DNA of 64,000 bases from an uncultured Nitrososphaerota archaeon (GTDB lineage Archaea > Thermoproteota > Nitrososphaeria > Nitrososphaerales > Gagatemarchaeaceae). The notes under the pieces are model-generated. The model saw nothing but the letters and a program-made list of their open reading frames with translations, was not told the origin of the DNA and searched no databases. Each line of letters begins with the position of its first letter. The first letter of the stretch is position 1. Below, one piece after another: positions 21,182 through 59,356 of this stretch. The position numbers were made by a program, and so were the translations under genes. Where the stretch lies: the NCBI GenBank assembly GCA_963703285.1, contig OY969807.1:1184001-1248000 (forward strand), in the 5' to 3' direction.

Positions 21182-21198
21182 AGGTGCGGTCGCCGGGA
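21182..21198 (-). repeat. att-like copy of tRNA-Gly 3' end (island boundary)
   Basis: Reverse complement TCCCGGCGACCGCACCT is identical to 47171-47187. Confidence 0.85.
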
Positions 21199-21665
21199 AT
21201 TTATGGCTTCGGGTTCAAATCTGTGACGCCGTGCGGTGAACCGCAAGCTTTCCAACACTCAGAAGCATCGGCAGGCTAAAGGACAAAATCTGCAGATGAC
21301 ATCGGAAAGCACCTACACCACATCATCCTAGAACACAGCGACGAGACTAGCCAGTTGGCTGAAGATTCTCCTGAAGATCCCGAAACCCGAGAGGGCCAGG
21401 GTGCTCCTCCAAGTGTGTTGGAGGGGTTGGCCTTATCATCGTGAAAGATGGATGGGCCGAAACACGTCTGCTGAAGCCACAATGCTAACCCATTGATGGG
21501 GTGTGTTGTGGTGGAGGACGTGTCGGGACCGTAGCAGTAAGTCAAATTCGCTCAGGTAATCCCGGGAAGCCGAACCCCCTAGCCAGGGTCGTTGATTCTG
21601 CTGCGCCTGTGAAGCGGCGCAATGAACTCTATGTGTAGTGATAATCCGTCTTGATGAACCTGTGC

Positions 21666-22451
21666 TCAAAACGTACTGCTCTTACTCTTCATGTACTTCA
21701 TCGCCATATCGACTGCATCTGATACGGCATTCAATGCCTCTTCTGGTTCTGGAACAGCATTCAAATCATGAGAATAGAAATTACGCGTTTTTCTGCTCGC
21801 TTTCAGGAAATTCTCCCTAAGGTTGGGGTCGAGTAGCTTTTTTTGGACCAAGTATTCGACCTTTTCCTCCTCCGTCCCACCATTCAGTTGCTCATTGACA
21901 TAATTAGCAGATTTCCCAGCAATCATCGCAGCCGCAAGGTAATGACCTAACTCATGTTCATCTATTGCCTTGCTTAGGTGCTTGAATAGCGGAGCGTCAA
22001 ATCCTTCTATCGGTGTTATTCGTTTGCGCTGTGATTCAAGAGTGTCAATCACTTCTTTTGGCACCGAAGTAACCAATCCCTTGAGATACCCTACAGCAGA
22101 GTCGCAGTTCACGATAAGTTTCATTATGGTTTGTTTCATGGGCCAGACGTAGGCCTTACCTTCCTTAATCTCGGGACCTAATACTTCTTCCAAGGCTGTC
22201 TCTCGAGTAATCGACTGAAAGGCGTCCCTCGAAGTCTGGTAGCTTTCCACGAGCGCTGGAAGCCGTCCCATGAGCTCCCATGTAATTCGGTCGAATTCAT
22301 GTTCTGATGGCGCCAACTTTATCGTAGTTTGCTCGTTGAGCTCACTAGCTCTAGATCTAATAGACTTGAACCTCTCCATGAGGGCGTAAACGGCCTCTGT
22401 TGACGTCATTAGTAACTTACCCTCGCGTTCCTCTCGTATTTCCACTTTCAT
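21666..22451 (-). CDS. HEPN (DUF4145-like) domain protein
   Basis: C-terminal AI..HE.GHY.AAAM..G and RNFYSH (Rx4H). Confidence 0.6.
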   Translation of the reverse strand: MKVEIREEREGKLLMTSTEAVYALMERFKSIRSRASELNEQTTIKLAPSEHEFDRITWELMGRLPALVESYQTSRDAFQSITRETALEEVLGPEIKEGKAYVWPMKQTIMKLIVNCDSAVGYLKGLVTSVPKEVIDTLESQRKRITPIEGFDAPLFKHLSKAIDEHELGHYLAAAMIAGKSANYVNEQLNGGTEEEKVEYLVQKKLLDPNLRENFLKASRKTRNFYSHDLNAVPEPEEALNAVSDAVDMAMKYMKSKSSTF

Positions 22452-22948
22452 AATGACCCGGTGGTATTTCAGATGGGTGGGGAGTATGATTCCATCGTAC
22501 CAAAGCCGTCAGAAAAGCCTACTTTCGTTATCAACTCAGAATAACTTGTACTAATCCTATCAAGTCAATACCAAAGGCGCAATGAACCCCGTGCCCCCCA
22601 CAGTCCTCCAGCATGCGGGCTCTCGACCAAATTCGGTCGACGCAGCTTGTGCGGTTATCTGCTGTGTAACTTTAACTGCGAGGCAAGCGATTCAGTTCTG
22701 TCGCAATTCAGAAGTCATCATTGGAGTCTTCATCGGACTCTTCGTCCCGTCCATCGGCATCGCCGTCCGCTTCATACTCGTCGTCTTCAGAATCTCCGAT
22801 GTCGAGCGACATGATACCAAGGGCTGCATGGAGTTGTTCCATTGAGTTTTCGGGACATGCCGGGAAGCGGCGGAAAGCGATGCCGCGCATTAGGAGGCGC
22901 GGTAGAAGCAGTCAATTCATTAATGACCACGAACCAAGAAGGTTCAAC

Positions 22949-24343
22949 ATGTCATGGCCTGAGGTCAGCACCGCCATTGAAGCGCTGGGGGGCTCATTCA
23001 ACTCCGTAGACCTACGGATTGCTGCTGTCAAGAGAGAACAATGGACTCCGGTTTTGTCCTCCGTCTATTTCTCAAACGAGCCCCCCGCCAAGGTTACCGA
23101 GGAGCACGATTCTATCCGAAAGCGAATGAAGAACTTCGTCACGAAGGAGTTCGCATTCTTCTTCCAGAGTTACCCGTACGAAGAATGGGCGCAGGTGGCA
23201 GGGAAATTTGCCGAAGGGAACATCGATATTGAATCTTCTAATTTGTTAGGTGAGAAAGTAGACCTGTTGAAGCTCTCGGTCCTCCCACGCCCGATGTACT
23301 TGGCAGCAAGGGGTTGGCCTGTGGTGGGGGCGGAGTGGTCGCTGGCAGGGCAGCAGGCCACAAACCAGTTCCTTGGTGAACTGCAGAAGCTTAGAGGCGG
23401 TGCCCTTGTAATGGGCTACGACGATGAGTACCAACTGATCAGCGACGTACTACAGGTCAAAGACTTCACGAACATGGCAAGGCGGTATGTGGTTATTGGC
23501 ATTCCCATCTACGCGAGTATCTCTGAGGTGGTCCCGCAGAGCGACCTCATCTCAGTGACAGTCAGAAGACATACCGGGCTCCGCGATCTCCAGCTCAACT
23601 TTAACGTCTTGGACCCAGACCTGAGGACAGGCAACTATGAGGTACTGTCGAGGCTCACGCGACGTGTGAAGAACGTTACGGCTACCCGTACTGAGTTTGA
23701 AGACACAACAATCACCTATCGTTTTGGCCGTATGCAGGTGGACCTTGTCCAGGTGAGGCTATTGCACAGGGCGATTCCCTTGATCGACATAGGTCTAGAC
23801 CGAGTCACAATACCTCCTCGGAAACCCACGGAGCCATTGACCGTTGCTCTGTCGGCGTTCTGCTCATTAGAAACGCTCAGGGAACAGTTGACATCTCCAG
23901 AGACTCATGAGGAGAAATCTGTGAAGGCCGGGCGAGTTTTCGAGGGAGCTGTCGCGTGGCTACTAGCGCTCCATGGCTATTCGGTAGTACGCCTCGAGGG
24001 GAGGAACGAGCAACTCAGGGTTCCGCCATCAGAGTATGAGATAGGCGCTTTGGATATTCTGGCCCACAAGCCAAGGAAGCTATTCCTTGTCGAATGCGAC
24101 ACCTCAATCCCGGATGAGAAGAAAATACACGCGATTCTCGCCGTGAAGGACCGCCTACAAAGAATCCTCCCAAGGCAGGCCCGGTTCACGTTCGAAGCAG
24201 TCGTCTTTACCCCAAGGGATGTTGGGCAATTCGAAAGCTTTGGGGTTCCGATCGCGGATAGGAGGAGCATCTTGGCCTTGTTCAATGGGGTGTTGAAAGG
24301 TAGGGAATTAGAGCTGGAGAATTGCTTGGCTCCTTATTTGTAA
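22949..24343 (+). CDS. Hypothetical protein with C-terminal PD-(D/E)xK-like nuclease domain
   Basis: FEGAVAWLL...GYSV...LDILA......LVEC (Lys position is Asp). Confidence 0.6.
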   Translation: MSWPEVSTAIEALGGSFNSVDLRIAAVKREQWTPVLSSVYFSNEPPAKVTEEHDSIRKRMKNFVTKEFAFFFQSYPYEEWAQVAGKFAEGNIDIESSNLLGEKVDLLKLSVLPRPMYLAARGWPVVGAEWSLAGQQATNQFLGELQKLRGGALVMGYDDEYQLISDVLQVKDFTNMARRYVVIGIPIYASISEVVPQSDLISVTVRRHTGLRDLQLNFNVLDPDLRTGNYEVLSRLTRRVKNVTATRTEFEDTTITYRFGRMQVDLVQVRLLHRAIPLIDIGLDRVTIPPRKPTEPLTVALSAFCSLETLREQLTSPETHEEKSVKAGRVFEGAVAWLLALHGYSVVRLEGRNEQLRVPPSEYEIGALDILAHKPRKLFLVECDTSIPDEKKIHAILAVKDRLQRILPRQARFTFEAVVFTPRDVGQFESFGVPIADRRSILALFNGVLKGRELELENCLAPYL

Positions 24344-24661
24344 AAGCCTTTCATCGCACTTCTAAGATGTGAGCAGTGCGCGGTATTTGATCTATGCTCG
24401 ATACTCACTCTCGTTTTAAGCCCTAGATGACCTGTTTCGCAGTTTCAAGCGGAAGGGCATCTCGAAGGTCATTGGCACCTCGTTCTTCGCTCTCACATTC
24501 CTCACGACTATCGGGGGCCCGATAACCAACAAATTACTACCACACCAATTCTGGGTTGATTGATCCCCCTTCCCCTCGGAACGCTTGCCCTCCAGTGTCT
24601 CCTGCCTGCCAGCCGGCTATCCCCGGCCAGCTAAGTCGTCTCCGCGTTGCTCTACGGCCAC

Positions 24662-25009
24662 TCAGCACGTCACGTGTAGGATGGCATTTGTTCCGCGAGG
24701 ATTTTTCCTCAACTCCTCGATGGCTTCCACTGTCGGCAGGATGACCAAGTTGATCTTGCGGCGTCGGGCTTCGCGCTTCACTTCTTGCATGACCGGCAAC
24801 GCTCCCGTCCCGGTACCGATTACCAGCCGCCTGCACTTCCAAGGTATCTTCTCCTTGATGGATAACGGCGTGTGTCCAAAGGCATCACGAAATTTCTTGG
24901 ATGGTTTCTTCTTACGCCTGCGGACTCGCCCGCTATCGATTACGACGTCGTGCTCGTAGGTAACCCCGTCAATGCGGATAGAGCCAAAGGAAAACGCTTC
25001 GAAGCGCAT
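24662..25009 (-). CDS. Mth938-like (DUF498) protein
   Basis: FGSIRIDG.TYEHDVVI, GHTPLS, LVIGTG, LHVTC. Confidence 0.88.
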   Translation of the reverse strand: MRFEAFSFGSIRIDGVTYEHDVVIDSGRVRRRKKKPSKKFRDAFGHTPLSIKEKIPWKCRRLVIGTGTGALPVMQEVKREARRRKINLVILPTVEAIEELRKNPRGTNAILHVTC

Positions 25010-25514
25010 TACTACACTTCCCACCGGTATTGTGCTTTGGGCGAATCATTACTATAAAGACTGTGAGCCGCAGATAATATGGCATACACGATTGAGGTTG
25101 ACAGGAATACGACGCATTTCCTCAGACAACATGGAACGAATTTACGGACATGGTTCTTGGTTGACTGCCAGCAAAAAAAGGCGGCACCCCTCGCGAGCAC
25201 GTCGGTAGGGTCGTCCACCATGAACGCGGAGGATACGCTGCTCTGTACCCCCGGTGCAAAACACCAGAGTTCAGAGTTCCCTTGTGTCATGTGGCATCGC
25301 GCCAGTGAATGCGGGTATTCTTCCTCTTTCTCCTGTCTTTTTTAAATTTTTTCCGAGGACCTAACCAACCTCCGGCTCCTTAGCACCACGCTTCGAGACC
25401 CGGACCCCGGACCGGTTCGGACCTCCATTGTCCTGCGGCTTCTAATAATACTCTACCCTGTATCAACACCCACTTCTTGCGACTGAATGGACCTTCGAGG
25501 GCTTGATTGGCGCT

Positions 25515-25760
25515 TCACTCCTCGATGTCCCTTATCGGCACCTTGGAGAACATCGCGCGGATCTTCTTCAGCAACCCAGTGGATGGTTCCCTTGCGAACA
25601 ACAGTTCCGCCTTCCTGAGCACGACCGCGTCCTCGGTCGCCATGACGATCATCCTGGTTCCGGGCGTCAGGTCCAGCTTCTCCCTGATATTGAGAGGGAT
25701 CTGCACCAGCCCCTTCTCGGAGACCTTCGTGACTGCTACGATCGGGTCATCTGGCTTTGG
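25515..25760 (-). CDS. AbrB/MazE/SpoVT DNA-binding protein; start codon unclear or lost
   Basis: TKVSEKGLVQIP..IREKL.L.PG. Confidence 0.8.
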   Translation of the reverse strand, partial: PKPDDPIVAVTKVSEKGLVQIPLNIREKLDLTPGTRMIVMATEDAVVLRKAELLFAREPSTGLLKKIRAMFSKVPIRDIEE

Positions 25761-26415
25761 GGTGCTCTCGCGGTCTCGTATCGTATCTTTAACCTGTTAC
25801 CTCAACGGGCGACAATCTCGAATCTGTTAGACCAATATGTCGAGTTCTAACCTCCAAGTATATCCTAAATTCGAAGTAATCAGAGGCACGATTGAATCCA
25901 GTTTAATCGTAGAGATAAACTAAAAGAAATCGGGGGACCACACTAGAACTTAACGGTAGACTCTACTTGGGTGCGCAATCCTTGTGATAACTTTTCTTCA
26001 TCAGAAACCCTTTCTTTACTTCTTGCCCCGCAGGAATTTCTTTTCCGCATTTTGCACAGTTAACCATCCTAACCATTTCGTATTAAGAGGATAGCTTGTA
26101 TTAAATCTGCTCATTAGCGCCTAATCGGGTTCTTGAGAGAACCTGTCTTGATCAAGCTCTCGGCTTTATTGAAAGGCAACGTTTCTCCTTCCTGTGAACA
26201 GCATGCAATTCTGCACCACTTCAACGCGAACTGCATCATCCAGCATCGTGCATCCCTCTGTCAACCCAGGCAGCGGCCTCGCACTCATCGAAGGTCAAAC
26301 TTCGTATCCGTCTCAGAAAGTAACTTGTCACTGACATGCTAGTCACCACGGTGACAGGTCAGTCGGCGACATTCGGCTTAAGGAAGAGTTACCAGTATTG
26401 GACACCGAGTCAGAT

Positions 26416-27063
26416 ATGTCGCAATTCGCAAGCAAGTGGGAGAAATCCAACGGCAGTGGATTCACTGGAAGAGTACGAGGTTCCGTTCAGAACCCGGGTC
26501 CTCTGAAGCCGAGGTTGGACCTGGCAGTACGACAGATTCAAGTTCAAGTCGCAAAGCTCGACGGAACGTGCGCAAAACTTAGGGAGAGAGACGCCTCGAT
26601 CTTCAGCAAGGTCGTGTCATCCATGCAGAAGCACGATTCGCAGCATGCTGCAGTCTACGCGAATGAACTCGCGGAGATAAGGAAGATGAGCAGGATGGTC
26701 ACCCAAGCCAAACTGGCTCTTGAGCAGATAACCCTGAGACTGAACACCGTCACCGAACTGGGCGACATCGTTGTGACTCTCACTCCTGCAATGTCGGTGA
26801 TTCGCAGCGTAAGGCAGGGACTGGTGAGCGTCCTGCCGGAGGCAGAAGGCGAGATTGGCGAGATCTCAGGCCTCCTGAGCAGTGTCCTAGTCGATGCTGG
26901 TTCGGTGGGTGGATACTCGCTGGACTTCGCGGCCGCTAACGAGGATGCAGAAAAGGTCCTTGCAGAGGCTGCGGCAGTTGCCGAAAGCAGGATGAAGGAG
27001 AAATTCCCTGAGATCCCCTCTGGGCTCCCCTCGATGGAAGAATCGACGGAAAGCACGGCGTAA
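26416..27063 (+). CDS. cdvB: ESCRT-III/Snf7 protein, CdvB paralogue lacking the C-terminal wH domain
   Basis: PLKPRL..A.RQIQ.QV.KLD, YANELAEIRKM, ALEQI.LRL.TV.ELGDIVVTL.PAM. Confidence 0.92.
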   Translation: MSQFASKWEKSNGSGFTGRVRGSVQNPGPLKPRLDLAVRQIQVQVAKLDGTCAKLRERDASIFSKVVSSMQKHDSQHAAVYANELAEIRKMSRMVTQAKLALEQITLRLNTVTELGDIVVTLTPAMSVIRSVRQGLVSVLPEAEGEIGEISGLLSSVLVDAGSVGGYSLDFAAANEDAEKVLAEAAAVAESRMKEKFPEIPSGLPSMEESTESTA

Positions 27064-27264
27064 CAACAAGAACGGTAAACCCGAGGGGCCTGGACCCGCG
27101 AAAGCGGGGACCTCCCCTCACCGCTCTCTTTCTCAGACGCGATTACCAATGCGAAGGGAATCTGGCTCGTGGGCGGTAATGATTTGTTCCATCTTTAGTT
27201 TAGTTACCTGGATTCGGCCGCTGGCACGGGGAAATGTCAAGCGGCAGAGGAGTGAGTGATTGCG

Positions 27265-28476
27265 GTGAGCTTCCTAGCGGCAAGAGAACTCGAGGAAGAT
27301 GCGAGGAAGTATGCCAGCGAAGCCATCCATTTCGACTCCCAGGGGGCCCACGGCACGGCGATTCAGATGTACCAGAAGGCAATCTCCGCACTGATTACGC
27401 TCGTCCGTCTATATCCTGATTACAAACTTAACAGGTACTACCTGGACAAGGCGGGAATCTATCAGGAGAGGGTGAAGGCCATCCAGCAGGCCCACGGTCT
27501 TCTCCCGCAGGACACACCGGCCGAGGGGGCAACCTTTCCAGTGTTCGCACCGAGCGCAGGCGGAGACGGCTCAGGCGACCAACAGATGGTTCCGCAACTC
27601 AAGGCCTCGTTCCACGAGTTGGTGATGAAAGAGAAGCCCAACGTAACGTGGGACGATGTCATCGGGCTGGACGACGCCAAGAGGGCAATTCGAGAGTCAA
27701 TCGTCTTCCCGTTCGAGAGGCCCGACCTCTTCCCTCTGGGCTGGCCGCGTGGAATCCTGCTTTATGGGCCTCCGGGCTGCGGGAAAACCATGCTCGCAGC
27801 TGCCACTGCAGCCGAGATAGACGGTTATTTCATCTCGATCGACGCGGCAACAATAATGTCAAAGTGGCTTGGAGAGGCCGAGAAGAACGTCGCGAAGCTC
27901 TTCACCGAGGCAAGGAAGCTGCTTGACAAGGGCAACCCGGTGATCATCTTCATTGATGAGCTCGATTCCCTCCTGGGAACTCGATCGAACGAAGTGGGAG
28001 GGGAGAGCAGGGTCAGGAACCAGTTCCTGAAGGAGATGGATGGAATCCAGGACAAGGGAAAGAACGTGCACCTTTACACCGTTGGAGCCACCAACAAACC
28101 ATGGTCGCTCGACTGGCCCTTCCTGCGCAGGTTCGAGAAGAGGATCTACATCCCGCTTCCGAACTTCGACGGTAGAATCTCCATGTTCAAGGAGTACACC
28201 GCCCCGATAAACGTGGACGGCGGCATAAACTTGGATGACCTCTCGAAAATCTCTGAGGGCTATTCCGGTTCCGACATGCGAGACATCTGCCAGGGAGGGC
28301 AGCTGAGAGTGGTCCGTGAACTCTTCGAGAGCGGGAAGGCCCTCGACAAGAGCGTTCAGCCCAGGCCAATCATGATGAACGACTTTAAGGAGATAATGAA
28401 GGTTCGCAGGCCGAGTGTCTCGCCAGAAATGCTACGTGCGTACGCGAACTGGGCGGAGCAGTACAAGGCCCTGTAG
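27265..28476 (+). CDS. cdvC: Vps4/CdvC AAA ATPase with MIT domain
   Basis: MIT (YASEAI..D.QG), RPDLFPLGWPRGILLYGPPGCGKT, SKWLGEAEK, FLRRFEKR. Confidence 0.95.
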   Translation: MSFLAARELEEDARKYASEAIHFDSQGAHGTAIQMYQKAISALITLVRLYPDYKLNRYYLDKAGIYQERVKAIQQAHGLLPQDTPAEGATFPVFAPSAGGDGSGDQQMVPQLKASFHELVMKEKPNVTWDDVIGLDDAKRAIRESIVFPFERPDLFPLGWPRGILLYGPPGCGKTMLAAATAAEIDGYFISIDAATIMSKWLGEAEKNVAKLFTEARKLLDKGNPVIIFIDELDSLLGTRSNEVGGESRVRNQFLKEMDGIQDKGKNVHLYTVGATNKPWSLDWPFLRRFEKRIYIPLPNFDGRISMFKEYTAPINVDGGINLDDLSKISEGYSGSDMRDICQGGQLRVVRELFESGKALDKSVQPRPIMMNDFKEIMKVRRPSVSPEMLRAYANWAEQYKAL

Positions 28477-28982
28477 ACTTCGACCTTCAAGACGCCCACA
28501 GCGCGGCGAGGCTCTGGATGAGATTAACTTCCATTGAGTTAATTCGACTCGGAACAGAAGGATGCTCCACTATCTACTTACTTTTCCACAATTTATCTAT
28601 TCCATCATCGCTTCTCGAACCGTGTCTTACAGTAGTTGATACGGCGTAATGGGCCGGAATGGCCCCGATAACTTTTCGGGTCATACAACGCTTCATCGGC
28701 GCACAAGATGCATCTCAAACGATCCTCAAACCTTGAAGAGCGATCAGAATACTGTCCTGCCATGACCTAGAGGTTGTATGCAAGAATCTTAAGTGCGGAG
28801 CTGAGGACACTTCCGAATCGCAAACCGACGAGAAATCATGCAGAATCGAAATGATAGGCAGCGTTTCCGAAAGACATCGTGTGCGGCAAGTACCTTGTAC
28901 AACAAGGAGGACTACTTCAGCAGGTAGTCTTGCGACCCATACTCGAAGACATAATTATGGCGCTACGACCTCGTCGCCGAAG

Positions 28983-50135: not shown

Positions 50136-51791
50136 TCAGTCGAACTCGCCGCCAGCACCCGCACCTGGCGGTGGGCCGGAGGGACCCCTGGACTTGCCTG
50201 CAGCAATCACGTCATCGATGCGCAGGATCATGCACGCGGCTTCGGTAGCGGACTTGATTATCTGTTCCTTCACGCTCAGTGGCTCGAGGACATTCTCCTT
50301 GTACATGTCCTTGACCTTGCCTTCCTTGGCCTGAACTCCGTACCACTTGACACCGCCCGCATGCTTTGCCCTCAGGTCGGTCATAGCGTCGATTGGGGAC
50401 ATACCAGCGTTGACGACCAGCGCAGTCGGTAGGGCCTCGAGCGCTTCCGCGAACGCCTGAGCAGCGAGCTGCTCGCGCCCGGTCAGATTCTCGGCCCAAT
50501 TCCTTAGCTGTGACGCCGTCTCCATCTCGGCTGAACCGCCTCCAGCCACGATCGCCGGCTTCTCCATGATGTCCTTGATGACCATCAGGGCGTCGTGGAC
50601 GGAGCGTTCGGCCTCGTCGACTATCCTCTGGGTCCCGCCTCGTATCAGGATCGTCACGGCCTTTGGGTTCCTGCAGCCCTCGACAAAGACCCACTTGTCC
50701 TCTTCGACCTTCCTCTCCTCTACCAGGTCTGCGTATCCGAGGTCCTTCTCCGAGATGTCGTCAAAGTTGTTCGCAACGCGTGCGCCCGTGGCTCTTGCGA
50801 GTTTCGTCATGTCGCTCTCTTTGGCCCTCCTAACCGCAAGGACGCCTGCCCTTGCAAGGTAGTGCTGCGCGGTGTCGTCCATGCCTTTCTGGCAGATTAT
50901 CACGTTTGTGCCGATTGCGACGACCTTGTCCACCATGCTCTTGAGCATATGCGTCTCCTCATCGAGGAACTTCTTCATCATGGTCGGGTCGCCGATGTTG
51001 AGCTTTGCGTCGAACTCCGTCTTCTCTATCTCGAAGGCCGCGCTGATCAGAGCGATTTTCGCCTTCTCCACCCGCTTGGGCATCCCAGTGTGAACGACTT
51101 CTTTGTCGAGAACTATGCCGCTGATCAGGGTCGTACCCGCTACCGATCCTCCGGGCTTCTTCTCGACCTTCACATTATCGAGGTCCACTCTGTAACCCCC
51201 ATCCCGCTCCTCCGCCACTGCAAGAGCTGCATTGACCACAAACTCTGCAAGCTCCTGGGCCTCCCTGACGACCAGTTTGGTCTGCATGCTCGTTCCGGCT
51301 ATCTTCGTTAGCCAGTCTCTGTTCGTCGGACTTACCTTCTCCGCGATGCTGCGGAGTATCTCGATTGACCTTTCAGCAGCCCTGTTGTATCCATGGACTA
51401 TCACCGTCGGATGCACGCCCTCGTCGATGAGTCCCTCAGCCTTCTCAAGAAGGGCGCCGGCGAGGATGACCGCAGACTTTGTTCCGTCTCCAACTTCGTC
51501 ATCGGTCGCCTTGGAGACTTCCACGAGCATCTTGGCGGCCGGATGCTGGATGTCCATCTCCTTCAGCAGAGTAGCCCCGTCGTTGGTGATGGTGACATCA
51601 CCTAGTGAATCGACGAGCATCTTGTCCATGCCTCTGGGGCCGAGAGAGCTCTTGACTACCTCGGCAACCAGCTTGGCTGCCTCAATGTTGTTCTCCTGAG
51701 CATCCTTTCCACGTGACCGACCGCTACCTTCTTTCAGGATAATTACGGGCTGGCCGCTGGAAGTAACAGCCTGAATGACTTGCGTTGACGT
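50136..51791 (-). CDS. Thermosome (group II chaperonin) subunit; ACG at the expected start, GDGTK variant
   Basis: GQPVIILKEG, LGPRGMDKML, TNDGAT, ILRIDD. Confidence 0.95.
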   Translation of the reverse strand, partial: TSTQVIQAVTSSGQPVIILKEGSGRSRGKDAQENNIEAAKLVAEVVKSSLGPRGMDKMLVDSLGDVTITNDGATLLKEMDIQHPAAKMLVEVSKATDDEVGDGTKSAVILAGALLEKAEGLIDEGVHPTVIVHGYNRAAERSIEILRSIAEKVSPTNRDWLTKIAGTSMQTKLVVREAQELAEFVVNAALAVAEERDGGYRVDLDNVKVEKKPGGSVAGTTLISGIVLDKEVVHTGMPKRVEKAKIALISAAFEIEKTEFDAKLNIGDPTMMKKFLDEETHMLKSMVDKVVAIGTNVIICQKGMDDTAQHYLARAGVLAVRRAKESDMTKLARATGARVANNFDDISEKDLGYADLVEERKVEEDKWVFVEGCRNPKAVTILIRGGTQRIVDEAERSVHDALMVIKDIMEKPAIVAGGGSAEMETASQLRNWAENLTGREQLAAQAFAEALEALPTALVVNAGMSPIDAMTDLRAKHAGGVKWYGVQAKEGKVKDMYKENVLEPLSVKEQIIKSATEAACMILRIDDVIAAGKSRGPSGPPPGAGAGGEFD

Positions 51792-51953
51792 ACCCTAATC
51801 GCCATTTTATTCGCGACTTCCCGACTTATATACACGGGGGACGATTATCACAATCGAGACTGGGTCGAACGAAGGGCCCTGCTAGGAGAGGGAATGTATT
51901 CTTACGGTATCAGCCGACATCAAGCCGAAGCGTCAACAAGTCCAATACCTATT

Positions 51954-52340
51954 TTAGCGAGGTTCAGCAGTTTTGTTCGATGGTAAATGGTTGACAAGGT
52001 CGCGCGTCGGGTCCGCAGCGAGGACGGATCTCTTGCGCGCCACCCTCTTCGCGGCCATAGAATTCAGTCGGTTGAGTTCCTCAAGACGAGTTGCACTAGA
52101 CGAAGATTCCTTTAGAAGCGCCATCAGCCTCGTTATCAGTTCCGGGTCCCCCGCCTTGATGATGTCGACTACAGCTTTTCGTTCAGGACCTCTTAGCGGG
52201 CGAATGAACTGGTCATAGTTCACGGCAAGAAGTTCAGCGATCTTGGCATCTCGCTCCAGGCCTTTCGCCCTAAGTTCCCCTGCATAGACATTCATTTCCT
52301 TTACAGGGTCGCTGACTGTCTCGGACTGATCAGTCTTCAT
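51954..52340 (-). CDS. Hypothetical protein
   Basis: 128-aa ORF with TTAATA box upstream. Confidence 0.5.
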   Translation of the reverse strand: MKTDQSETVSDPVKEMNVYAGELRAKGLERDAKIAELLAVNYDQFIRPLRGPERKAVVDIIKAGDPELITRLMALLKESSSSATRLEELNRLNSMAAKRVARKRSVLAADPTRDLVNHLPSNKTAEPR

Positions 52341-52406
52341 CCATCAATCTGAGTCATCAACAGCATATTAAGGAATAGGCGGTCCCATTATTCTTGCGAC
52401 TGCTAA

Positions 52407-52835
52407 TTGGAGGCGCCCCTGTCTTCGAAGAATGTTTGCGAGGGCCATCACTGTGTGAGTTGCTGCTATGCAACAGAGATGCTTCTATTGGAGGATGATG
52501 TGCAACGAATAGTCAGTCTCGGTTTCAAGGAAGGCTCTTTTGCAGTTGAATCCGACGGCTTCAAGATGCTCAGGAACAGCAGCGCCGGGAGATGCGTCTT
52601 CCACGATGGAAAGCAGTGCACAATCTACTCAAATCGACCCGCGGGATGCAGGCTGTATCCCATCATCTTCGACGAAGACCTCAACCATCCTGCAAAGGAC
52701 GCGTTCTGTCCATACAGGGATGAGTTTGACCTCTCCTTGAAAGCCAAACGAGAGTTATCAGACGTCTATCTCAGGCTGATTGACGGCCCCAAATTTCCTT
52801 CCAAAGCACCCGGAAACTTGCCAAAGGTTGGCTGA
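52407..52835 (+). CDS. YkgJ-family cysteine cluster protein
   Basis: C..CC, CVF....CTIY..RP.GC.LYP. Confidence 0.88.
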   Translation: MEAPLSSKNVCEGHHCVSCCYATEMLLLEDDVQRIVSLGFKEGSFAVESDGFKMLRNSSAGRCVFHDGKQCTIYSNRPAGCRLYPIIFDEDLNHPAKDAFCPYRDEFDLSLKAKRELSDVYLRLIDGPKFPSKAPGNLPKVG

Positions 52836-52973
52836 CCGGCTAAACTGCCCGAGAATACAGGCCGAATTGTGGGAGAAGGCATAGACTCATAGGCTTTCCT
52901 GCACGGCGTTTGAAGCCAAAAAGACAGTGGACAATAAAGTCCTATATCGAACGAACGAGAAAATCCTTGTCCC

Positions 52974-53369
52974 ATGACCTACCCGCTGGATAAGCTGTGC
53001 ATTCAGGTCTTCAAGTTTGACCGGCGGGTCAGGTTCGCAGGAGTTCTCGACGAGACGGGTAGATTGATCGCCGGGGGGATGAGAAAGGGCATTATCTCTC
53101 TGGAGCCTGCCAGGGAGAATCTCAGGTTGATGGCAGACCTGACGATGCAGATTGCGACTGACAAGACCTGGGATCGGTACTTTGGGGGGATGTGGTACAC
53201 ATTCGTGAAGCGAGAGAAGGTCAACGTGCTCACCTTCTATCTCGGCGGGAAGAGCGTGATGATGATCTCGACGGAGTCAGACTTCGACCTTGACAATGCG
53301 GACCTCCTCAGGGAGACCGTGATGACGATGTACAGCAACGGGATTGTCCCTGAAAAAGTAAAGAGATAG
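52974..53369 (+). CDS. DUF6659-like (roadblock/profilin-like) thaumarchaeal protein
   Basis: RVRFAGVL...GRLIAGGMR.G..SL, YFG...Y..V.REKV. Confidence 0.7.
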   Translation: MTYPLDKLCIQVFKFDRRVRFAGVLDETGRLIAGGMRKGIISLEPARENLRLMADLTMQIATDKTWDRYFGGMWYTFVKREKVNVLTFYLGGKSVMMISTESDFDLDNADLLRETVMTMYSNGIVPEKVKR

Positions 53370-53505
53370 TGTCAGGCTAGCTCAAGCCCAACTCCAGGTA
53401 CTCGGCCTGTGGGATGAAGTCGGATCCCAAAAACCTTCTCTCCTCTTCTTTCGTTTGACGTACCTTTTCGAAGGTATAAATATCGCAGCGTGATCAAACA
53501 AACAG

Positions 53506-53667
53506 ATGGCGAAGAAGAAAGTAAAGAAATCTTCGAGAAAGGCCAAGAAGACAACCGCAAAGCGGATGGTTATCAAGAAGAAGGAAGTCACACCACCAGC
53601 CGCTGCTCCTGCCAGTCCACGACTTGCTACTAAATCATACTCTGATGTCCTCTCACCCTACCGCTAA
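53506..53667 (+). CDS. 53-aa histone-H1-like Lys/Ala/Pro-rich protein
   Basis: MAKKKVKKSSRKAKKTTAKR..PPAAAPASP; TATAAATA at ~53475. Confidence 0.55.
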   Translation: MAKKKVKKSSRKAKKTTAKRMVIKKKEVTPPAAAPASPRLATKSYSDVLSPYR

Positions 53668-53777
53668 GTGAGCCTCATATTACCTCTAACGCCCTCTCAA
53701 TCACCCTCATAGTCAGACCACAAGAGGTAAGACCGGGGCAGCAATCATTCCCTTTCCTGCCAGGCAGAAGAGAAAGA

Positions 53778-53802
53778 GCGGGCTGGGTGGGACTTGAACC
53801 CA
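53778..53802 (-). repeat. tRNA 3'-end fragment (att-like, a different tRNA)
   Basis: Reverse complement TGGGTTCAAGTCCCACCCAGCCCGC is a T-arm plus acceptor 3' strand. Confidence 0.6.
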
Positions 53803-54081
53803 AAATCGGTGGCCAGAATCCAGTCGCGAGAATTAAACCCAAGGGGGCGCTCAACTACAAAATCTCATATCCGGCCAAGGATTTTTCCATTATAATCGTA
53901 AGGGGATTTTGCCCCTCCTAGACAGAACAGACAAGAATTGAAGGCACGAAAATTATCTCCGGTAACGTACGCGTGAAGCCAGGTACGCTTTCCCCGAATG
54001 CTCGCCCAGCCTGTGAGCCCAATAGACCGATAAATGAAGAGCGTAAACAAGCCTACTCGTGAACTCGCGAGCCTCTAATCA

Positions 54082-54354
54082 TCACTGCTCTTGTTCCTCT
54101 TTCTTCACCATTCTCGAAATGGTATCTTCAACCACATCCACAGGCGTAATTCCTCTCTTAGCAGCATAGGCGTCAAGCTGTTTCGCTATGTCCTCAGGTA
54201 TCTCGTAGATTCTAACCCTCTTGAACTCGAGAGCCCTAAGCAAGTCAAGCCAGTCAGGCTCAGGTATCCTGATGCTATTGAAGCCCTTTGTCTTGACTTC
54301 GTATGATTCCCAGTAATATTTACCTGAAGTCTGCTCCGCATAAGTTAGCGTCAT
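54082..54354 (-). CDS. Small protein with RHH/CopG-like C-terminus
   Basis: EIPEDI..QLD.YA.KRG.T...VV...I. Confidence 0.5.
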   Translation of the reverse strand: MTLTYAEQTSGKYYWESYEVKTKGFNSIRIPEPDWLDLLRALEFKRVRIYEIPEDIAKQLDAYAAKRGITPVDVVEDTISRMVKKEEQEQ

Positions 54355-54361
54355 GGCTGAT

Positions 54362-54688
54362 CTAAACCACGTGACGACTATCAGTTTGTCTCGACCTTAG
54401 CTCTTCCAGTCGATTGAGAGTGGCTGAGGAGATCTGCAGATAAATTAAGCCATGAGCTGTTGCATTAGAATAGAGCATTATTGGTGTTTGAAGGTGCGAA
54501 ATTCCTACGATGAAGGGAGGAAGAGGTGCTGCTGTTTCCAGTATTCCGAATGAACTGGTCACCAGCTGTGGTTGAGCCTGCGGCGATGATAGTAAAGACT
54601 GGGGATAATGGATCTCGATGTTGAATCGTATCATCGGGGAAGGATGGGGGCTCGCTGCACTTGCTTGGATGAACTCCGCTTCGCCCAT
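54362..54688 (-). CDS. Hypothetical protein
   Basis: 108-aa ORF, AT-richer DNA. Confidence 0.35.
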   Translation of the reverse strand: MGEAEFIQASAASPHPSPMIRFNIEIHYPQSLLSSPQAQPQLVTSSFGILETAAPLPPFIVGISHLQTPIMLYSNATAHGLIYLQISSATLNRLEELRSRQTDSRHVV

Positions 54689-54803
54689 GATCTAGAAGAA
54701 AAGTCGATAGCATCCTTTAAACTTGCCTAATGCAGGCTCTCCCAAACCTTCGTCAGATAACTGAACCTGCCAAAATGCGGCGGATAAGCGGTTCATACCA
54801 TGC

Positions 54804-54911
54804 ACGGCCGCGCTGGAGCACTACCTGAACATAACGTTCACGGAAGAAGACAGGGTGCGGATGAAGCCGTGGGTCGAAGGCTGGGTTCAGAGGGCTAACC
54901 GACAAAGGTAA
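54804..54911 (+). pseudogene. C-terminal remnant of an archaeal tyrosine integrase
   Basis: TAALEHYLNITFTEEDRVRMKPWVEGW resembles the catalytic-Tyr end of archaeal site-specific integrases; upstream part missing. Confidence 0.55.
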
Positions 54912-55074
54912 ACAGTCAGATGAACTTGACAGGCTCCGACCCCGAGTTCAAGATACTGCAGCGAAGCAGGAGCGGAGCCGCAGATAATCTACCCGCCCAC
55001 CGAGAAGCCGAAGTCATCACGCCGCTATTACGAGCTCGACCTTGACGCTGGGCTGAAAGGAATGCTTAGGCGCT

Positions 55075-55386
55075 CTAACTGGTCAGGGTCATCTCTATCT
55101 TAACCTCCTCGGGGATCCTGAGCTTCGTTATCTGTCGCATCGTTCTTTCGTTCGGTTCGATGTCAAGGATCCTTCTGTGAATCCTGAGCTGCCAGTGGTC
55201 GAACGTGTGCGTACCCTCCCCCGTAGGGGCTTTCCTCGTAGTAATCTTCAGCCTCTTCGTTGGCAGAGGTTGCGGGCCCTTGCATTTGACCCCCGTCTTC
55301 TCAGCGATTTCTTTGATCTCCCAGGCAAGGGCATCCAGCTGCTCAAGGTTGGAGCTGGTTAGCTTGATTCGGGCGTACTGTGGCAC
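55075..55386 (-). CDS. rpsJ: 30S ribosomal protein uS10
   Basis: ARIKLTS, GP.PLPT..L..TTRKAP.GEG..TF..W.LRIH.R. Confidence 0.95.
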   Translation of the reverse strand: MPQYARIKLTSSNLEQLDALAWEIKEIAEKTGVKCKGPQPLPTKRLKITTRKAPTGEGTHTFDHWQLRIHRRILDIEPNERTMRQITKLRIPEEVKIEMTLTS

Positions 55387-55596
55387 TATTCCTCGAGGGC
55401 CGCTTCTTGACTGACTACTTACACGTATGCCACTCATTGCCCGACCGTGTCCGATGGATTGCCTTCGCTCAATGAGGTTCATTTGAGACGCGTCGCACAT
55501 ACCGACATGAGACCTTGCATGACACGACGAGCTATCGGAATCTTTCCCAGTCCATTTATATACTATATATACTGCTCAAATCCTCACGCGCAGGCA

Positions 55597-56154
55597 ATGC
55601 CTCAAACGAGGGCGATAGTAAGCATCGAGAACGTTGTCGCTTCCGCCTCGATAAATCAGAGGGTCGACCTGAACCTGATAACCAAGAACTTTATCGACGT
55701 GGAGTACCACCCTGACCAGTTCCCTGGACTGGTCTTCAGACTGAAGACCCCAAAGACAGCTACCCTGATCTTCAGCTCGGGGAAGATGGTCTGTACGGGA
55801 GCAAAATCGGAGGACCAGTCGAGAAAGGCCGTTCAAGAGGTTGTCAGGAGGTTGAAGAAGGGGGGTATCCCCATCAAGAATGAGGCAGAGATAGTGATAC
55901 AGAACATGGTGGCATCGGCGAACCTCGGGGGGAAGGTTCACCTGGAGGAGGCGGCCAGACAGCTGCCAAAGTCGATGTACGAGCCCGAGCAGTTCCCAGG
56001 TTTGATCCACAGGATGCCGGACCCCAAGACCGTGATACTCCTGTTCGCCTCAGGGAAGCTCGTCTGCACCGGAGCGAAGAGGGAAGCCGACGTCTACAGG
56101 GCCGTGAACAACCTGCACGTGATGCTCGAGGAAAAGAAGCTCATGATCTACTGA
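55597..56154 (+). CDS. tbp: TATA-box-binding protein
   Basis: IENVVAS, Y.P.QFPGL (twice), LIF.SGK.VCTG. Confidence 0.97.
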   Translation: MPQTRAIVSIENVVASASINQRVDLNLITKNFIDVEYHPDQFPGLVFRLKTPKTATLIFSSGKMVCTGAKSEDQSRKAVQEVVRRLKKGGIPIKNEAEIVIQNMVASANLGGKVHLEEAARQLPKSMYEPEQFPGLIHRMPDPKTVILLFASGKLVCTGAKREADVYRAVNNLHVMLEEKKLMIY

Positions 56155-56411
56155 CAATTCCGCTCCCTTCCATTGGGATGGAAGAAGCTAGGGCGATCCG
56201 GCAGACCGCTTCAGCGCTAAAAGCGTTAGTTCGGTTACGTCTCGCGCTGGTGGTACTTTTGATTCAACAAAGGAAATTACTTCAGCAATCGCTGGATGAA
56301 GATGGGTAATCAATATGCGGGCAAAGAACCCGAATGCCGACTAGTCCGACGTGGGCGTTGAGTCTTAGGTACTTCCTCTGGGAAAGATTGTTCTCGAACC
56401 AGGTGCCGTGC

Positions 56412-56531
56412 CTAGTTTGACGAACAAGTACACTCACTCGTGTAATTATTACAACCAGTACAAACCAAAACAATGCTTCCTTTGGTTTTCATCTCCGCCA
56501 CTTTTTTTCCACATTTGCTGCATCGAACCAT
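56412..56531 (-). CDS. 39-aa six-cysteine zinc-ribbon microprotein
   Basis: MVRCSKCG...CTGC...ECTC; directly after cdc48, AGGAG upstream. Confidence 0.55.
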   Translation of the reverse strand: MVRCSKCGKKVAEMKTKGSIVLVCTGCNNYTSECTCSSN

Positions 56532-56555
56532 CTCTACCACACATCTCCTACGGCC

Positions 56556-58724
56556 TTACCTGTAGTAAGGCATCGCGACTTTCTCCATCGGGTTGCTCTC
56601 CCTGGAGGACCTCACTTTCTTCGCTGCCTCCCGGAAGTGCTCGTAGGTCACGATCGGTTCATCGAGGTGCTTCTTCGCGTCCTCGGGCCTCGGATACTTA
56701 GCGATGTATGCTTGAAGAACTATGGAGAGTGCCGTGTTCACCAGAGCCGCCAGGTCTGCTCCGTTGAGTCCCTCGGTCATCTCAACTAGACGTTCAACCT
56801 CCACCTCCTTTGAGATCGGCTTCCCTTTCAGCTGTATCTGCAATATGTCCCTCCGCGCTTCCTTGTCGGGCAGCGGGACGTTGACGATCTTGTCGAATCT
56901 GCCCGGTCTGAGTAGGGCCGGGTCGACCATGTCAATCCTGTTCGTGGCTGCGAGCACCACAACACCCAGCAGCGCCTGGATGCCGTCCATCTCCGTGAGC
57001 AGCTGACTGACTACCCTCTCGGTCACATCGCTGCCTCCCCCCATTCCCCTCACCGGAGCAAGAGCGTCTATCTCATCGAAGAAGATTATGCAGGGAGACG
57101 CCTGTCTTGCTCGTTTGAAGACCTCTCGCACCCCCCTTTCCGATTCACCCACCCACTTGCTGAGCAGCTCTGGTCCCCTGACGCTGATGAAGTTCGCCTC
57201 GCTCTCGGTCGCTACCGCCTTGGCGAGCAGCGTCTTTCCAGTCCCGGATGGGCCGAAGAGGAGCACCCCCTTCGGCATGTTGTAGCCTATCGCCTTGTAC
57301 AGGTCAGAGAATTTGAGCGGCCACTCCACAGCCTCTTGGAGTTCCCTCTTGACGTCCTCCAGCCCTCCGATCTCAGACCACTTCACGTCCGGCGTTTCGA
57401 GATACACCTCTCTCATTGCCGACGGTATGATGTCCTTCAGCGCCTTCTCGAAATCGTCCCCCGTAACAATCAGCTTGTCGAGCGTCTCCGGGCTCAGCCT
57501 CTCTTCCCCGAGGTTCAGCTCTGGCAGCATTCTTCTGACAGTCTTCATGGCAGCCTCTTTGCAGAGATACTCGAGGTCGGCCCCGACGAATCCGTGCGAC
57601 ACCGAGGCGAGCCTCTCCAGGTCGACGTCCTGCAGCAGCGGCATGTGACGCGTGTGGATCTGCAGAATCTCGTATCTTCCCCTCTTGTCCGGGACCTTGA
57701 TCTCGATCTCTCTGTCAAACCTCCCCGGCCTTCGGAGGGCCGGGTCAAGTGCGTTGGGCCGGTTGGTGGCCGCTATCACTATGACCTTTCCCCTAGCTTC
57801 GAGGCCGTCCATCAACGAGAGCAACTGGCTGACGACTCTCCTTTCGACTTCTCCGGTCACCTCCTCGCGCTTTGGAGCTATCGAGTCAATCTCGTCGATG
57901 AAGATTATGGTGGGTGCCTTCTCCTTTGCTTCCTTGAATATCTCCCTGAGTTTCGCTTCTGATTCACCGTAGAACTTGCTCATAATCTCCGGGCCGCCTA
58001 TCGGAATGAAGTGAGCGTTGCTCTCGGAGGATACAGCCTTCGCCAGGAGCGTCTTGCCGGTTCCCGGAGGGCCGTAGAGGAGAACTCCCTTCGGTGCTTC
58101 AATGCCCAACTTCTCGAAAATCTCCGGATGTCTCAGCGGGAGCTCAATCGTCTCCCTTACCTTCCGTATCTCGTCCGTTATGCCGCCAATATCTTCGTAA
58201 GTTACCTGTGGTACTCCCCTCAGAGCTTCGCGCTTCTCAGAGATGACGAAGACCGTTCTATGGGTTATCAGCGCCGCTTCTGCGACCGGACTTACCCCAG
58301 TAACTTGGAAAGTGAGCCTCCCGCCGAAGTAGGGTACAATGACGTTGTCCCCCTTCGTTACCGGGACGCTATCGAGGGCATCCGCCAAGTATCGCTCGTC
58401 GATAGGCGGTACAGCTTCGAGCGGAGCGACCACGACCTTCTCGGCAGGTGGGGCGCTCACCTTCTTTACTACAACCGCGTCACCGATAGCGACGTCAGCA
58501 TTGTTCCTGATGACACCGTCGATCCTTAGTACTCCTCTGCCCTCGTCTGACGGGTAGAGGGGGAGGCACTTCGCGACCGTCCGTCTCTTTCCCTTGACCT
58601 CGATTACGTCTCCCGTGGGCGCGCCCAATGATTTCATCGCGTCATAGTCCAGTCGGGCCACACCTCGACCCACATCGCGGGTGTATGCCTCGAGAACCTT
58701 TAGCTGGACTGGCTGCTGGCTCAC
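56556..58724 (-). CDS. cdc48: CDC48/VCP family AAA ATPase
   Basis: N domain (RDVGRGVAR), two AAA modules ([16 protein letters not shown]), C-terminal YYR. Confidence 0.97.
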
Positions 58725-58834
58725 GTCTTTATCACGGTTAGACGATTCTCACGTTCATCCACCTCCTAATAGGCATCTCCGTCAGCTATCTGTCGCTATC
58801 ATAAACTTACAAATGCTGAGGGAGATAGCATCTT

Positions 58835-59254
58835 TCATGAGTGCTGACTTGAAGAGCTCTCTAACTTAGTACTGACCCTCGGGTCATGCTTGAACGTCTT
58901 CAGATATTCGACTAGGTCAACGAAATCTGGGTTGTTATCTGCTTTGCGAAGTCGTACGCGGATGTCTTCCTTTCCCAAGTTCACAACAATCTCAGGTTGA
59001 TATGGGATCTTGGTAAAGAAAACAGCAGAGTAGTGTATCCTTCCCTTGACCTCTTCTCGAACAATGTCTTCCGTGTCTGGGAAGGCTAAGATTGCAAAGG
59101 CGATTCCGTCAATCCAATTGACGGTGGGGATAACTGGAATTTCTTTCGTAAGTATCTGCTTCACGACGTCTTCAAAAAAGATTATTTTATTGTCGGACTC
59201 CAAAACATGGTGAACGATGATTTCCTCGGTAGGCATGTATGTAATCTTGGCCAA
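58835..59254 (-). CDS. Conserved archaeal hypothetical protein
   Basis: I.Y.P..EIIVH..NWIDGIAF..G.IHY pattern. Confidence 0.6.
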   Translation of the reverse strand: MAKITYMPTEEIIVHHVLESDNKIIFFEDVVKQILTKEIPVIPTVNWIDGIAFAILAFPDTEDIVREEVKGRIHYSAVFFTKIPYQPEIVVNLGKEDIRVRLRKADNNPDFVDLVEYLKTFKHDPRVSTKLESSSSQHS

Positions 59255-59356
59255 ATCTAACGTCTTCTCCTAATGGAACAGATTCTAGACCCTCCGAATT
59301 AAGGTTACTTGCTTATTCGGGAGATAAAGCCTGCATTGGATGGGTGTATAATGAAA

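Follow-up and report, generated by a model that had tools for sequence, protein, structure and literature searches.

A probable decayed tRNA-Gly(GCC) island, split by an IS-pair inversion, with a cassette of accessory core-gene paralogs in a soil Nitrososphaerota archaeon

The DNA analysed here is a stretch of 64,000 nucleotides (the window, G000:C1:1184001-1248000) from the single-contig genome G000 (2.25 Mb, 60.6% guanine plus cytosine, GC) of an uncultured soil Nitrososphaerota archaeon, a thaumarchaeon; other G-numbers denote genomes of its congeners. A low-GC region of this window carries copies of cdvB (ESCRT-III), cdvC (Vps4), cdc48, the TATA-binding protein gene tbp, the ribosomal protein gene uS10 (rpsJ), thermosome and Alba, all of which are extra paralogs with core copies elsewhere in the genome. 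We consider it probable, at roughly three chances in four, that the region is a decayed 21.2-kb integrative island at a tRNA-Gly(GCC) gene, split by an inversion between two copies of an insertion sequence (IS) and carrying a genus-specific, movable cassette of accessory paralogs.

The ends of the island are marked by a 17-mer, TCCCGGCGACCGCACCT, present exactly at 47171-47187 (+) and 21182-21198 (-), as claimed in the first-pass annotation of this DNA. No third copy with up to two mismatches occurs in the window (0.02 expected), and a search of the whole G000 genome for further recurrence returned these two copies in total. One of them (attR, attachment site) forms the last 17 nt of the tRNA-Gly(GCC) gene at 47066-47187 (+), which has two putative 22-nt introns, in the D-loop and the anticodon stem; the other (attL) is a copy of the tRNA 3' end that reads as the reverse complement in the present inverted arrangement. 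The two halves of the island are half A at 21199-30244 (9046 bp, GC 0.522), the right part of which is colinear with contig G009:C2, and half B at 47188-59355 (12168 bp, GC 0.537), also colinear with G009:C2. When the inversion described below is undone, the island reads 21199-30244 followed by 59355-47188, a length of 21.2 kb without the IS, with direct 17-nt repeats at both ends and the tRNA-Gly at one of them, the arrangement of a tRNA-integrated island. The composition is deviant as well, since the flanks have a GC of 0.604-0.618 and the genome 0.606, and the low-GC stretch stops at both att copies.

The tRNA itself was not called by ARAGORN or at the Rfam gathering threshold in the unspliced window. 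In a relaxed Rfam search, the acceptor stem and the T-arm at 47066-47187 aligned perfectly, with 82 nt inserted in between. Two 22-nt insertions were placed by eye (47081-47102 and 47120-47141) and cut out in a script, after which ARAGORN called a 77-nt tRNA-Gly(GCC). Blind removal of all segment pairs is permissive, though Gly(GCC) leads with 820 of 1456 full-length calls, ahead of Pro(AGG) with 389. The call of tRNA-Gly(GCC) is based on the hand-derived splice together with the conserved anticodon loop in relatives; contigs from two soil sequencing runs that carry an intron-less tRNA-Gly paralog span the same two ends as the spliced tRNA. ARAGORN with introns allowed, run on the whole of G000, found no tRNA-Gly among 41 tRNA candidates. 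Many of these candidates carry long or oddly placed introns, which suggests that intron-rich tRNAs are the rule in G000, and tRNA annotation in this lineage needs an archaeal multi-intron model.

The island was cut in two by a pair of IS copies of the IS1595 family, at 30245-31558 (-) and 59356-60669 (+). Both are 1314 nt long and 100% identical, they are inverted relative to each other, and they are the only two copies in G000. Their transposase matches PF12762 (DDE_Tnp_IS1595, 3.7e-18) and the PF12760 zinc ribbon (7.2e-10) in two overlapping frames, and the ends show terminal inverted repeats of about 25 nt and 7-bp target-site duplications; transposase, zinc ribbon, inverted repeats and short duplication are those of the family. 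The flanks are unlike at each copy, and exchange of the inner flanks yields two perfect 7-bp duplications: TTCATTA, where 30238-30244 matches the reverse complement of 59349-59355, and CGGTTTT, where the reverse complement of 31559-31565 matches 60670-60676. Exchanged duplications at an identical inverted IS pair are the textbook sign of homologous recombination between the IS copies. In addition, alignments to G009:C2 follow the joined order without the IS and break at 30242 and 59356, and a paralogous block at 957-962.5 kb of G000, part of the second locus called region 2 below, has the same joined order as the un-inverted island. On these three grounds the inversion of 31559-59355 by the IS pair, which the first-pass annotation had proposed, is proven. 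The swapped duplications indicate that one IS landed inside the island and the second in host DNA 15.5 kb past the tRNA, before recombination flipped the segment between them.

The case resembles other chromosomal inversions by IS pairs in its identical inverted copies and exchanged target-site duplications; it differs in that an island was cut in two and its att sites were inverted relative to each other. Because of this inverted orientation, and with no integrase, the island is locked and cannot excise. The inverted segment also holds host DNA that lies outside the island (31559-47065, GC 0.604), with long stretches homologous to congener chromosomes at 67-81% nucleotide identity.

Assembled metagenome contigs of two runs, X1 and X2, possibly the source sample, cover the island at 99-100% identity; coverage was judged from these contigs, and uncovered parts carry no evidence. 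The junction of the island and the second IS copy is spanned without a single difference by a Logan contig of run X2 (59323-60516), and the junction at 47187 is bridged by none among the contig matches listed for the two runs. One X1 contig has the IS with a flank unlike either G000 copy, and the depth of the IS is about 3x that of its neighbours, which points to further insertion sites of the IS in that soil community.

Searches of the G000 genome with the island genes (tblastn) returned other copies of every core-type cargo gene, and the core copies were named by conserved synteny. The island cdvB (26398-27063, +) matches NF041005 (CdvB1/B2, 5.7e-57, under the equivalog cut-off) and has five other copies, the closest with 85% amino acid identity at 238 kb beside core cdvC and four more distant. 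The adjoining cdvC (27256-28476, +), with MIT, AAA and Vps4_C domains, has one other copy, 81% identical at 239.9 kb. The island pair is thus a counterpart of the core cdvB-cdvB-cdvC locus (238-241 kb; 85% and 81%), as in archaeal Cdv loci; it differs in being a second set on an island, and the cassette includes cdvC in its G000 version alone. Of the Cdv system, the analysis covered CdvB, by the CdvB1/B2 match, and CdvC, by its MIT, AAA and Vps4_C domains. Cdc48 (56556-58724, -), with N, D1 and D2 domains by Pfam, has copies with 96% (958 kb), 89% (130 kb, frameshifted) and 58% identity; TBP (55447-56154, +; PF00352, 2.1e-59; homologous part from a Met near 55597) has copies with 93% (961 kb) and 87% (113 kb); uS10 (55075-55500, -; PF00338, 2.3e-27) has copies with 95% (962 kb) and 89% (1864 kb). 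The thermosome gene (50136-51791, -; PF00118, 2.8e-178, 594 bits) has four other copies, and Alba (49405-49788, +; PF01918, 2.9e-19) has two, at 493 kb (74%) and 243 kb (48%). The first-pass annotation had seen a mobile element that collected core genes. The mobile island of extra copies is supported; the genes are accessory, genus-specific paralogs and not the sole copies.

Core cdc48 and core tbp lie about 10-22 kb apart on one contig in 12 congeners and in G000. The core uS10 would be expected beside EF-1alpha and was not found there; the copy at 1864 kb sits between HAD hydrolase and epimerase genes. Among 11 uS10 loci of relatives, the epimerase gene adjoins in 6 and the HAD gene in 3, and 4 are linked instead to tbp, cdc48 or cdvB. 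All 12 genomes examined from other families in the order have a single copy of the gene, and 6 of 18 congeners have at least two matches. In the core cdc48 of G000 (G000:C1:130678-132844), one nucleotide inserted outside any homopolymer shifts the frame near residue 560. Core cdc48 is also frameshifted in G009, G011, G014 and G017:C3, and intact in G008, G018, G033 and the short-read assemblies; these frameshifts are either long-read errors or the first signs of decay in genomes with a cassette copy.

The same genes occur together in congeners, at other places of the chromosome. A low-GC stretch of G009:C2 (about 52.6-72.7 kb) holds an island-like module without the IS and without cdvC. Reading down from 70.9 kb, the order is cdvB, three small open reading frames (ORFs), a 139-aa ORF, cdc48, tbp and uS10, followed by two small ORFs, thermosome, DUF6659, ykgJ, an AbrB-like ORF and Alba. 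On both sides, G009:C2 (30-52.6 and 77.7-100 kb) is colinear with G000 at 1290.6-1312.4 and 1312.8-1336 kb, with 74-82% nucleotide identity and 93% over the signal recognition particle (SRP) RNA and one short block. Between tRNA-Ser(GCT) and the SRP RNA, G009 has an insert of 25 kb where G000 has 463 bp, so the G009 module occupies a site that is non-orthologous to the tRNA-Gly site and empty in G000.

The island DNA of G000 and G009 is mostly 89-94% identical, with lower values for Alba (79%) and thermosome (68%). Synonymous divergence (dS) between the two genomes ranges from 0.07 to 0.56 in 12 island genes (median 0.24), against 0.35-1.56 in 21 flanking ORF pairs (median 0.90) and 1.02 in core cdc48. 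The flanking set was drawn from 39 ORF pairs, of which 21 were kept at 73% amino acid identity or more and 18, mostly off-frame, were dropped; two of the 21 may be antisense artefacts. A Mann-Whitney test gives p 6.5e-6, with the reservation that linked genes are not independent observations. This dS, about 4-fold below that of the core, suggests that the two islands share an ancestor several-fold more recent than that of the two genomes. The island cdvB shares 95% identity with its G009:C2 copy, with a ratio of nonsynonymous to synonymous divergence (dN/dS) of 0.085. One further gene of the G009:C2 stretch, encoding a MutS-like ATPase (57137-59070, 623 aa), is 86% identical to G000:C1:593876-595809, in a low-GC patch at 590-600 kb, which suggests that island pieces are scattered in G000.

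G000 holds a second copy of the cassette in region 2 (about 956-964 kb), a low-GC islet with the order small ORFs-cdc48-tbp-uS10-ykgJ-methyltransferase. It is bounded by a 28-nt direct repeat (26/28; 956119-956146 and 963757-963784) that resembles a tRNA T-arm and acceptor end, and more tRNA-end-like debris lies at both borders. The G009:C2 island, too, has a tRNA-like 3' end resembling this repeat, at its right edge (about 72.7 kb), where no full tRNA was found; a search for direct repeats at the ends of that island yielded no more than a 13-nt T-loop match. A second G009 block with small ORFs, cdc48, tbp and uS10 (G009:C3, 780-785 kb) is 89% identical to region 2 and is flanked by orthologs of G000 206 kb and 193 kb, a site different from that of region 2. 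The two accessory uS10 copies of G000 (55075-55380 and G000:C1:961644-962042) share 99.3% of nucleotides. Gene conversion between them is probable because their dS is 0.03, against 0.19-0.37 for the neighbouring genes.

Eight metagenome contigs with the 139-aa ORF show it joined to cdc48-tbp(-uS10), thermosome, cdvB, DUF6659 or ykgJ in varying orders. The mobility of the cassette therefore appears well supported by these genome comparisons, from the non-orthologous sites in congeners, the roughly 4-fold lower dS and the second att-flanked copy in G000. Of the checks on relatives that had been suggested for this island, the one for the same cluster in congeners was successful, and the one for an empty tRNA-Gly site with both flanks found none.

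Phylogenetic analysis separated cassette cdc48 and tbp from their core counterparts in G000. In a cdc48 tree of 32 rows, with one row left out for a short match, 11 cassette-type rows from 9 genomes are sister to 20 core rows, with support of 84 and 88 in the Shimodaira-Hasegawa-like approximate likelihood ratio test (SH-aLRT); cassette-type cdc48 is thus present in 9 of 23 congeners. The core proteins are nearly invariant (end branches 0-0.02) and the cassette proteins have end branches of 0.013-0.10. The dN/dS of cdc48 is 0.10-0.13 in the cassette versus 0.012-0.020 in the core, about tenfold, and the cassette genes are held under relaxed purifying selection. In a TBP tree of 91 rows, a single clade of 19 rows (SH-aLRT 91) takes in the island copy and every one of the 11 TBPs flagged for linkage to cdc48 or uS10; the core tbp of G000 lies outside it. 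Across the Nitrososphaerota, 2 of 80 TBP loci are linked to cdc48 or uS10. The G000 additions have their own pattern: no counterpart of the cassette-type cdvC was found in 22 congeners searched, and its AAA part is 82% identical in nucleotides to the core cdvC of another subclade of the genus, the whole gene being 77% identical to the G000 core cdvC. The first 4.1 kb or so of the island likewise had no DNA match in the 22 congeners.

That elements of this kind use the tRNA-Gly core is indicated by a sibling in G033. On G033:C4 (L024, 12728-19963), a 7.2-kb islet follows the orthologous tRNA-Gly, with a 17-nt direct repeat that shares a 15-nt core with the G000 repeat, a 413-aa tyrosine integrase (PF00589, 1.2e-14) adjoining the tRNA and, at the opposite end, a PIN protein. 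This integrase is 75% identical to the sole G000 integrase, beside tRNA-Leu(CAG), and the islet suggests that integrases of that family use the tRNA-Gly core in the genus. At the same tRNA-Gly, G008:C3 (L023) has at least 15 kb of 48-52% GC, with a tRNA-adjacent 425-aa ORF without a Pfam match. Downstream of the tRNA-Gly in eight relatives, the GC is normal in five and low in two, and one contig is too short.

From these observations we propose the following course of events. Tyrosine-integrase recombination at the 3' end of tRNA-Gly(GCC) would have brought the island in and duplicated the 17-nt core, and the integrase would have been lost after entry. An IS1595-type element may then have landed in the island and a second copy 15.5 kb beyond the tRNA, and recombination of the inverted copies flipped 27.8 kb, leaving the halves 21199-30244 and 47188-59355. 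The cassette has a core of cdc48, zinc ribbon, tbp, uS10 and small conserved ORFs, plus cdvB, ykgJ, DUF6659, thermosome and Alba, to which G000 alone adds cdvC and a defence-like left end. It appears to move between chromosomal sites and congeneric species and to recombine with its own second copy. The paralogs are proposed to act as alternative isoforms, used conditionally alongside the core set, with possible roles of the alternative TBP in promoter choice, of Cdc48 and thermosome in proteostasis, and of ESCRT-III/Vps4 in membrane remodelling.

Several results count against the proposed mobile island. No integrase accompanies the cassette: a PF00589 scan of G000 found one gene, at 1627 kb outside the island; three integrase-like proteins used as tblastn queries (from G033 the integrase, from G008 the 425-aa ORF, and the integrase of G000 itself) revealed no integrase remnant in the window, so that the remnant reported in the first-pass annotation could not be recovered; no PF00589 gene lies near the cassette in G001, G009, G014, G034 or G011; and no integrase homolog is present in the eight metagenome contigs with the 139-aa ORF. 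An integrase at the end of the element is thus present in the G033 islet and lacking in the G000 island. A split integrase of the SSV type across att was considered and dropped, as no ORF of integrase size or similarity enters either att copy. None of the relatives yielded an empty tRNA-Gly site between both G000 flanks, and the DNA past the tRNA-Gly of G014 and G001 maps to G000 1067-1077 kb. The relatives' DNA past this tRNA has no genes in common with the G000 flank, and the missing empty site can be attributed to rearrangement of the region between species. In addition, the cdc48-tbp pair lies in normal-GC DNA in G002, G006, G011 and G034, and the cassette cdc48 tree roughly tracks species groups, so that old vertical descent with loss probably explains part of the cassette pattern. 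The lower dS of the islands could come partly from composition or gene conversion. Finally, not all cargo need be functional. The thermosome gene has ACG where its paralogs have the ATG start; the frame upstream of 51629, to 51791, is open and 80% identical to the paralog N-terminus, the longest standard ORF (50136-51629) starts 54 codons later, and the closest ATG further upstream lies in another frame.

Several of these points also fit an ordinary segmental duplication in a region prone to recombination, with an old, vertically inherited second locus shuffled by rearrangement, with the 17-nt repeat as the scar of an unrelated small element. The absence of an integrase from every genome and contig examined with the cassette, the partial tracking of species groups, the normal-GC cdc48-tbp pairs and the rearranged tRNA-Gly neighbourhood would all be expected. 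The sister clades of cassette and core cdc48 are both restricted to this genus, and extensive gene duplication has been reported for the related family Gagatemarchaeaceae (PMC10640624). Such a duplication does not readily account for a low GC that ends at the two att copies, for a whole module at a non-orthologous G009 site whose G000 equivalent is empty, for a dS about 4-fold below that of the core, or for the tRNA-like direct repeats of region 2, and we regard it as unlikely.

A remnant of a virus or plasmid with its own takeover kit (ESCRT, chaperone, TBP and ribosomal protein), reprogramming the host for replication or release, is less likely still. The att-flanked, low-GC island is compatible with it, as are the small genes of RHH, AbrB and PIN type in the G000 or G009 islands, of a sort typically seen in mobile elements, and the purifying selection on the cargo. 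The searches point elsewhere. PHROGs, run on 10 ORFs lacking assignment, with part of the small ORFs among them, gave one weak repressor match and no capsid, terminase, portal or other provirus hallmark. In IMG/VR, the island cdc48 retrieved distant giant-virus AAA ATPases (33-45%) and cdvB retrieved nothing. Replication, capsid and conjugation genes were not found by Pfam among the ORFs tested, and the cargo is 80-96% identical to host paralogs and confined to one genus.

An assembly artefact, in which strain variants or a contig of a second organism were stitched into false paralogs and false junctions, can be all but dismissed: the genome is metagenome-derived with a contamination estimate of 2.76%, and single-base frameshifts occur in several genes of the few-contig assemblies of the genus, but the swapped target-site duplications are self-consistent, a record that a chimera would not yield, the X1/X2 contigs (99-100%, possibly the source sample) bridge the island/second IS junction and show a separate region 2, and the same module occurs in other genomes and metagenomes.

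Returning to the decayed island, its remaining genes are mostly small. Pfam or NCBIfam matches confirmed the first-pass labels of cdvB, cdvC, cdc48, tbp, uS10, thermosome, Alba, YkgJ, DUF6659 and DUF498; four others (HEPN/DUF4145, AbrB/MazE, RHH and glycosyltransferase) are backed by weak matches (E 0.0038, 0.017, 8e-4 and 6e-4, respectively). In half A, a 261-aa ORF (21666-22451, -) without another copy in the genome has the DUF4145 match, under the Pfam cut-off. The next, a 540-aa ORF (22721-24343, +), had been labelled a nuclease; it has no Pfam, PHROG or NCBIfam match and no assigned family, and its protein-atlas neighbours are bacterial hypothetical proteins, with Mrr/NERD as weak leads. 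They are followed by a DUF498 (Mth938-like) protein (24662-25024, -; PF04430, E 1.1e-10) and a small AbrB/MazE-like protein (25515-25706, -; PF04014), for which the G009 ORF at the matching place, overlapping and longer upstream, gives a PF04014 match of 2.2e-07. Past cdvB and cdvC lie three small conserved ORFs (28851-29144, +; 29555-29863, -; 29922-30140, +) with no family match, which are found beside the cassette in G009, G001, G005 and metagenome contigs.

In half B, read from the tRNA, a 349-aa ORF unique in G000 (47386-48435, -) has the glycosyltransferase-1 match, under the cut-off. Beyond Alba and thermosome are, by Pfam, a YkgJ-type CxxCxxCC protein (52407-52835, +) and a DUF6659 protein (52974-53369, +), both of which also accompany the cassette in G009, G017 and G002 and on the metagenome contig L160. 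A Lys-rich 57-aa ORF (53494-53667, +), known from its translation, is followed by a ribbon-helix-helix (RHH)-like ORF (54082-54354, -; phrog_876 repressor) and a 108-aa ORF (54362-54688, -), also from translation; the last two are 96-97% identical in amino acids to G009, and none of the three resembles an integrase. Between cdc48 and tbp sits a 42-aa zinc-ribbon microprotein with two CxxC pairs (56412-56540, -; weak zinc-ribbon matches, E 0.003-0.005). The hallmark of the cassette is the 139-aa protein (58835-59254, -), encoded upstream of cdc48 in most contigs examined. Its AlphaFold model is a confident one, with a predicted local distance difference test score (pLDDT) of 82.7; no PDB fold matched it at E of 0.001 or less (best 0.64), and the protein atlas gave no usable lead. 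Most cargo ORFs without a named function had no Pfam, PHROG or NCBIfam match, and transcription factor B (TFB) was not seen among the island ORFs tested.

Three observations concern the DNA around the island. On its left flank, an ORF at 18456-19460 (334 aa, in the stretch 17703-19359) belongs to a family that is multi-copy in all 23 genomes of the genus, with 69-85% nucleotide identity, and this confounds synteny there. Within the inverted host segment, 36183-39350 consists of two tandem units of about 2 kb (repeat families D1-D4; 75-82% identity) that look like a gene pair present twice. Adjoining the first IS copy, a three-gene set at 31621-36134 (268, 870 and 358 aa) has paralogs with 43-67% amino acid identity at G000:C1:950056-951370 and 965135-969303, flanking region 2, and in G011:C2.

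Much of this picture is known: a degraded tRNA-integrated island, an ordinary IS-pair inversion, and TBP paralogs on accessory replicons. The tRNA-targeting and cryptic integrated elements that Krupovic et al. (2019, PMC6563490) described in Thaumarchaeota resemble the island: they insert at a tRNA and duplicate its 3' end, deviate in composition, occur patchily among relatives and carry host-like genes. The sibling G033 element, with its tyrosine integrase at the same tRNA-Gly core, adds to the likeness, and the G000 island differs by having no integrase and by its cargo of extra cdvB/cdvC, cdc48, tbp, uS10, thermosome and Alba genes. The main text of PMC6563490 has zero occurrences of Cdv, ESCRT, TATA, thermosome, Cdc48 or "ribosomal protein"; its supplements, or those of PMC10640624, might list such genes. 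The closest parallel for the TBP is Halobacterium NRC-1, whose pNRC100 and pNRC200 carry multiple TBP and TFB genes with a proposed role in alternative promoter selection, an example of general transcription factor paralogs on IS-rich mobile or accessory DNA (PMC1447603). Those are large autonomous euryarchaeal replicons, in contrast to a small thaumarchaeal chromosomal island or cassette, and in the G000 island the TBP is tightly linked to cdc48 and uS10.

What appears to be new is a movable cassette that unites cdc48, tbp, uS10, cdvB/cdvC, thermosome and Alba; supplements aside, no description of such a cargo was found in the literature, in agreement with the first-pass annotation. The usual cargo of mobile elements consists of genes for defence, metabolism or replication. 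Here, second copies of genes for transcription, ribosome, Cdc48, chaperonin, chromatin and division appear to travel together between sites and species.

A bolder extension would see the cassette as a module for an alternative cell state that circulates horizontally among soil Thaumarchaeota and switches the transcriptional and proteostatic programme of its host. It would bring its own TBP and its own uS10, which in archaea corresponds to the bacterial NusE, along with a Cdc48 and its dedicated 139-aa partner, a chaperonin, a chromatin protein and ESCRT-III/Vps4, and the ESCRT pair might aid the vesicle-mediated spread of an integrase-less element between cells. We hold this idea to be speculative and improbable.

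The carrier of the cassette is an abundant uncultured lineage of soil archaea, and its genes stay under selection. For those who annotate such genomes, it is a warning that a copy of a "marker" gene, uS10 for instance, may be an accessory one. The cassette also offers a concrete, testable case for the origin and spread of informational and cell-biological paralogs in archaea. It bears on regulatory diversification, as with the multiple TBP and TFB of haloarchaea, and on how, along the archaeal-eukaryotic line, the families of ESCRT proteins, Cdc48 and chaperonins expanded.

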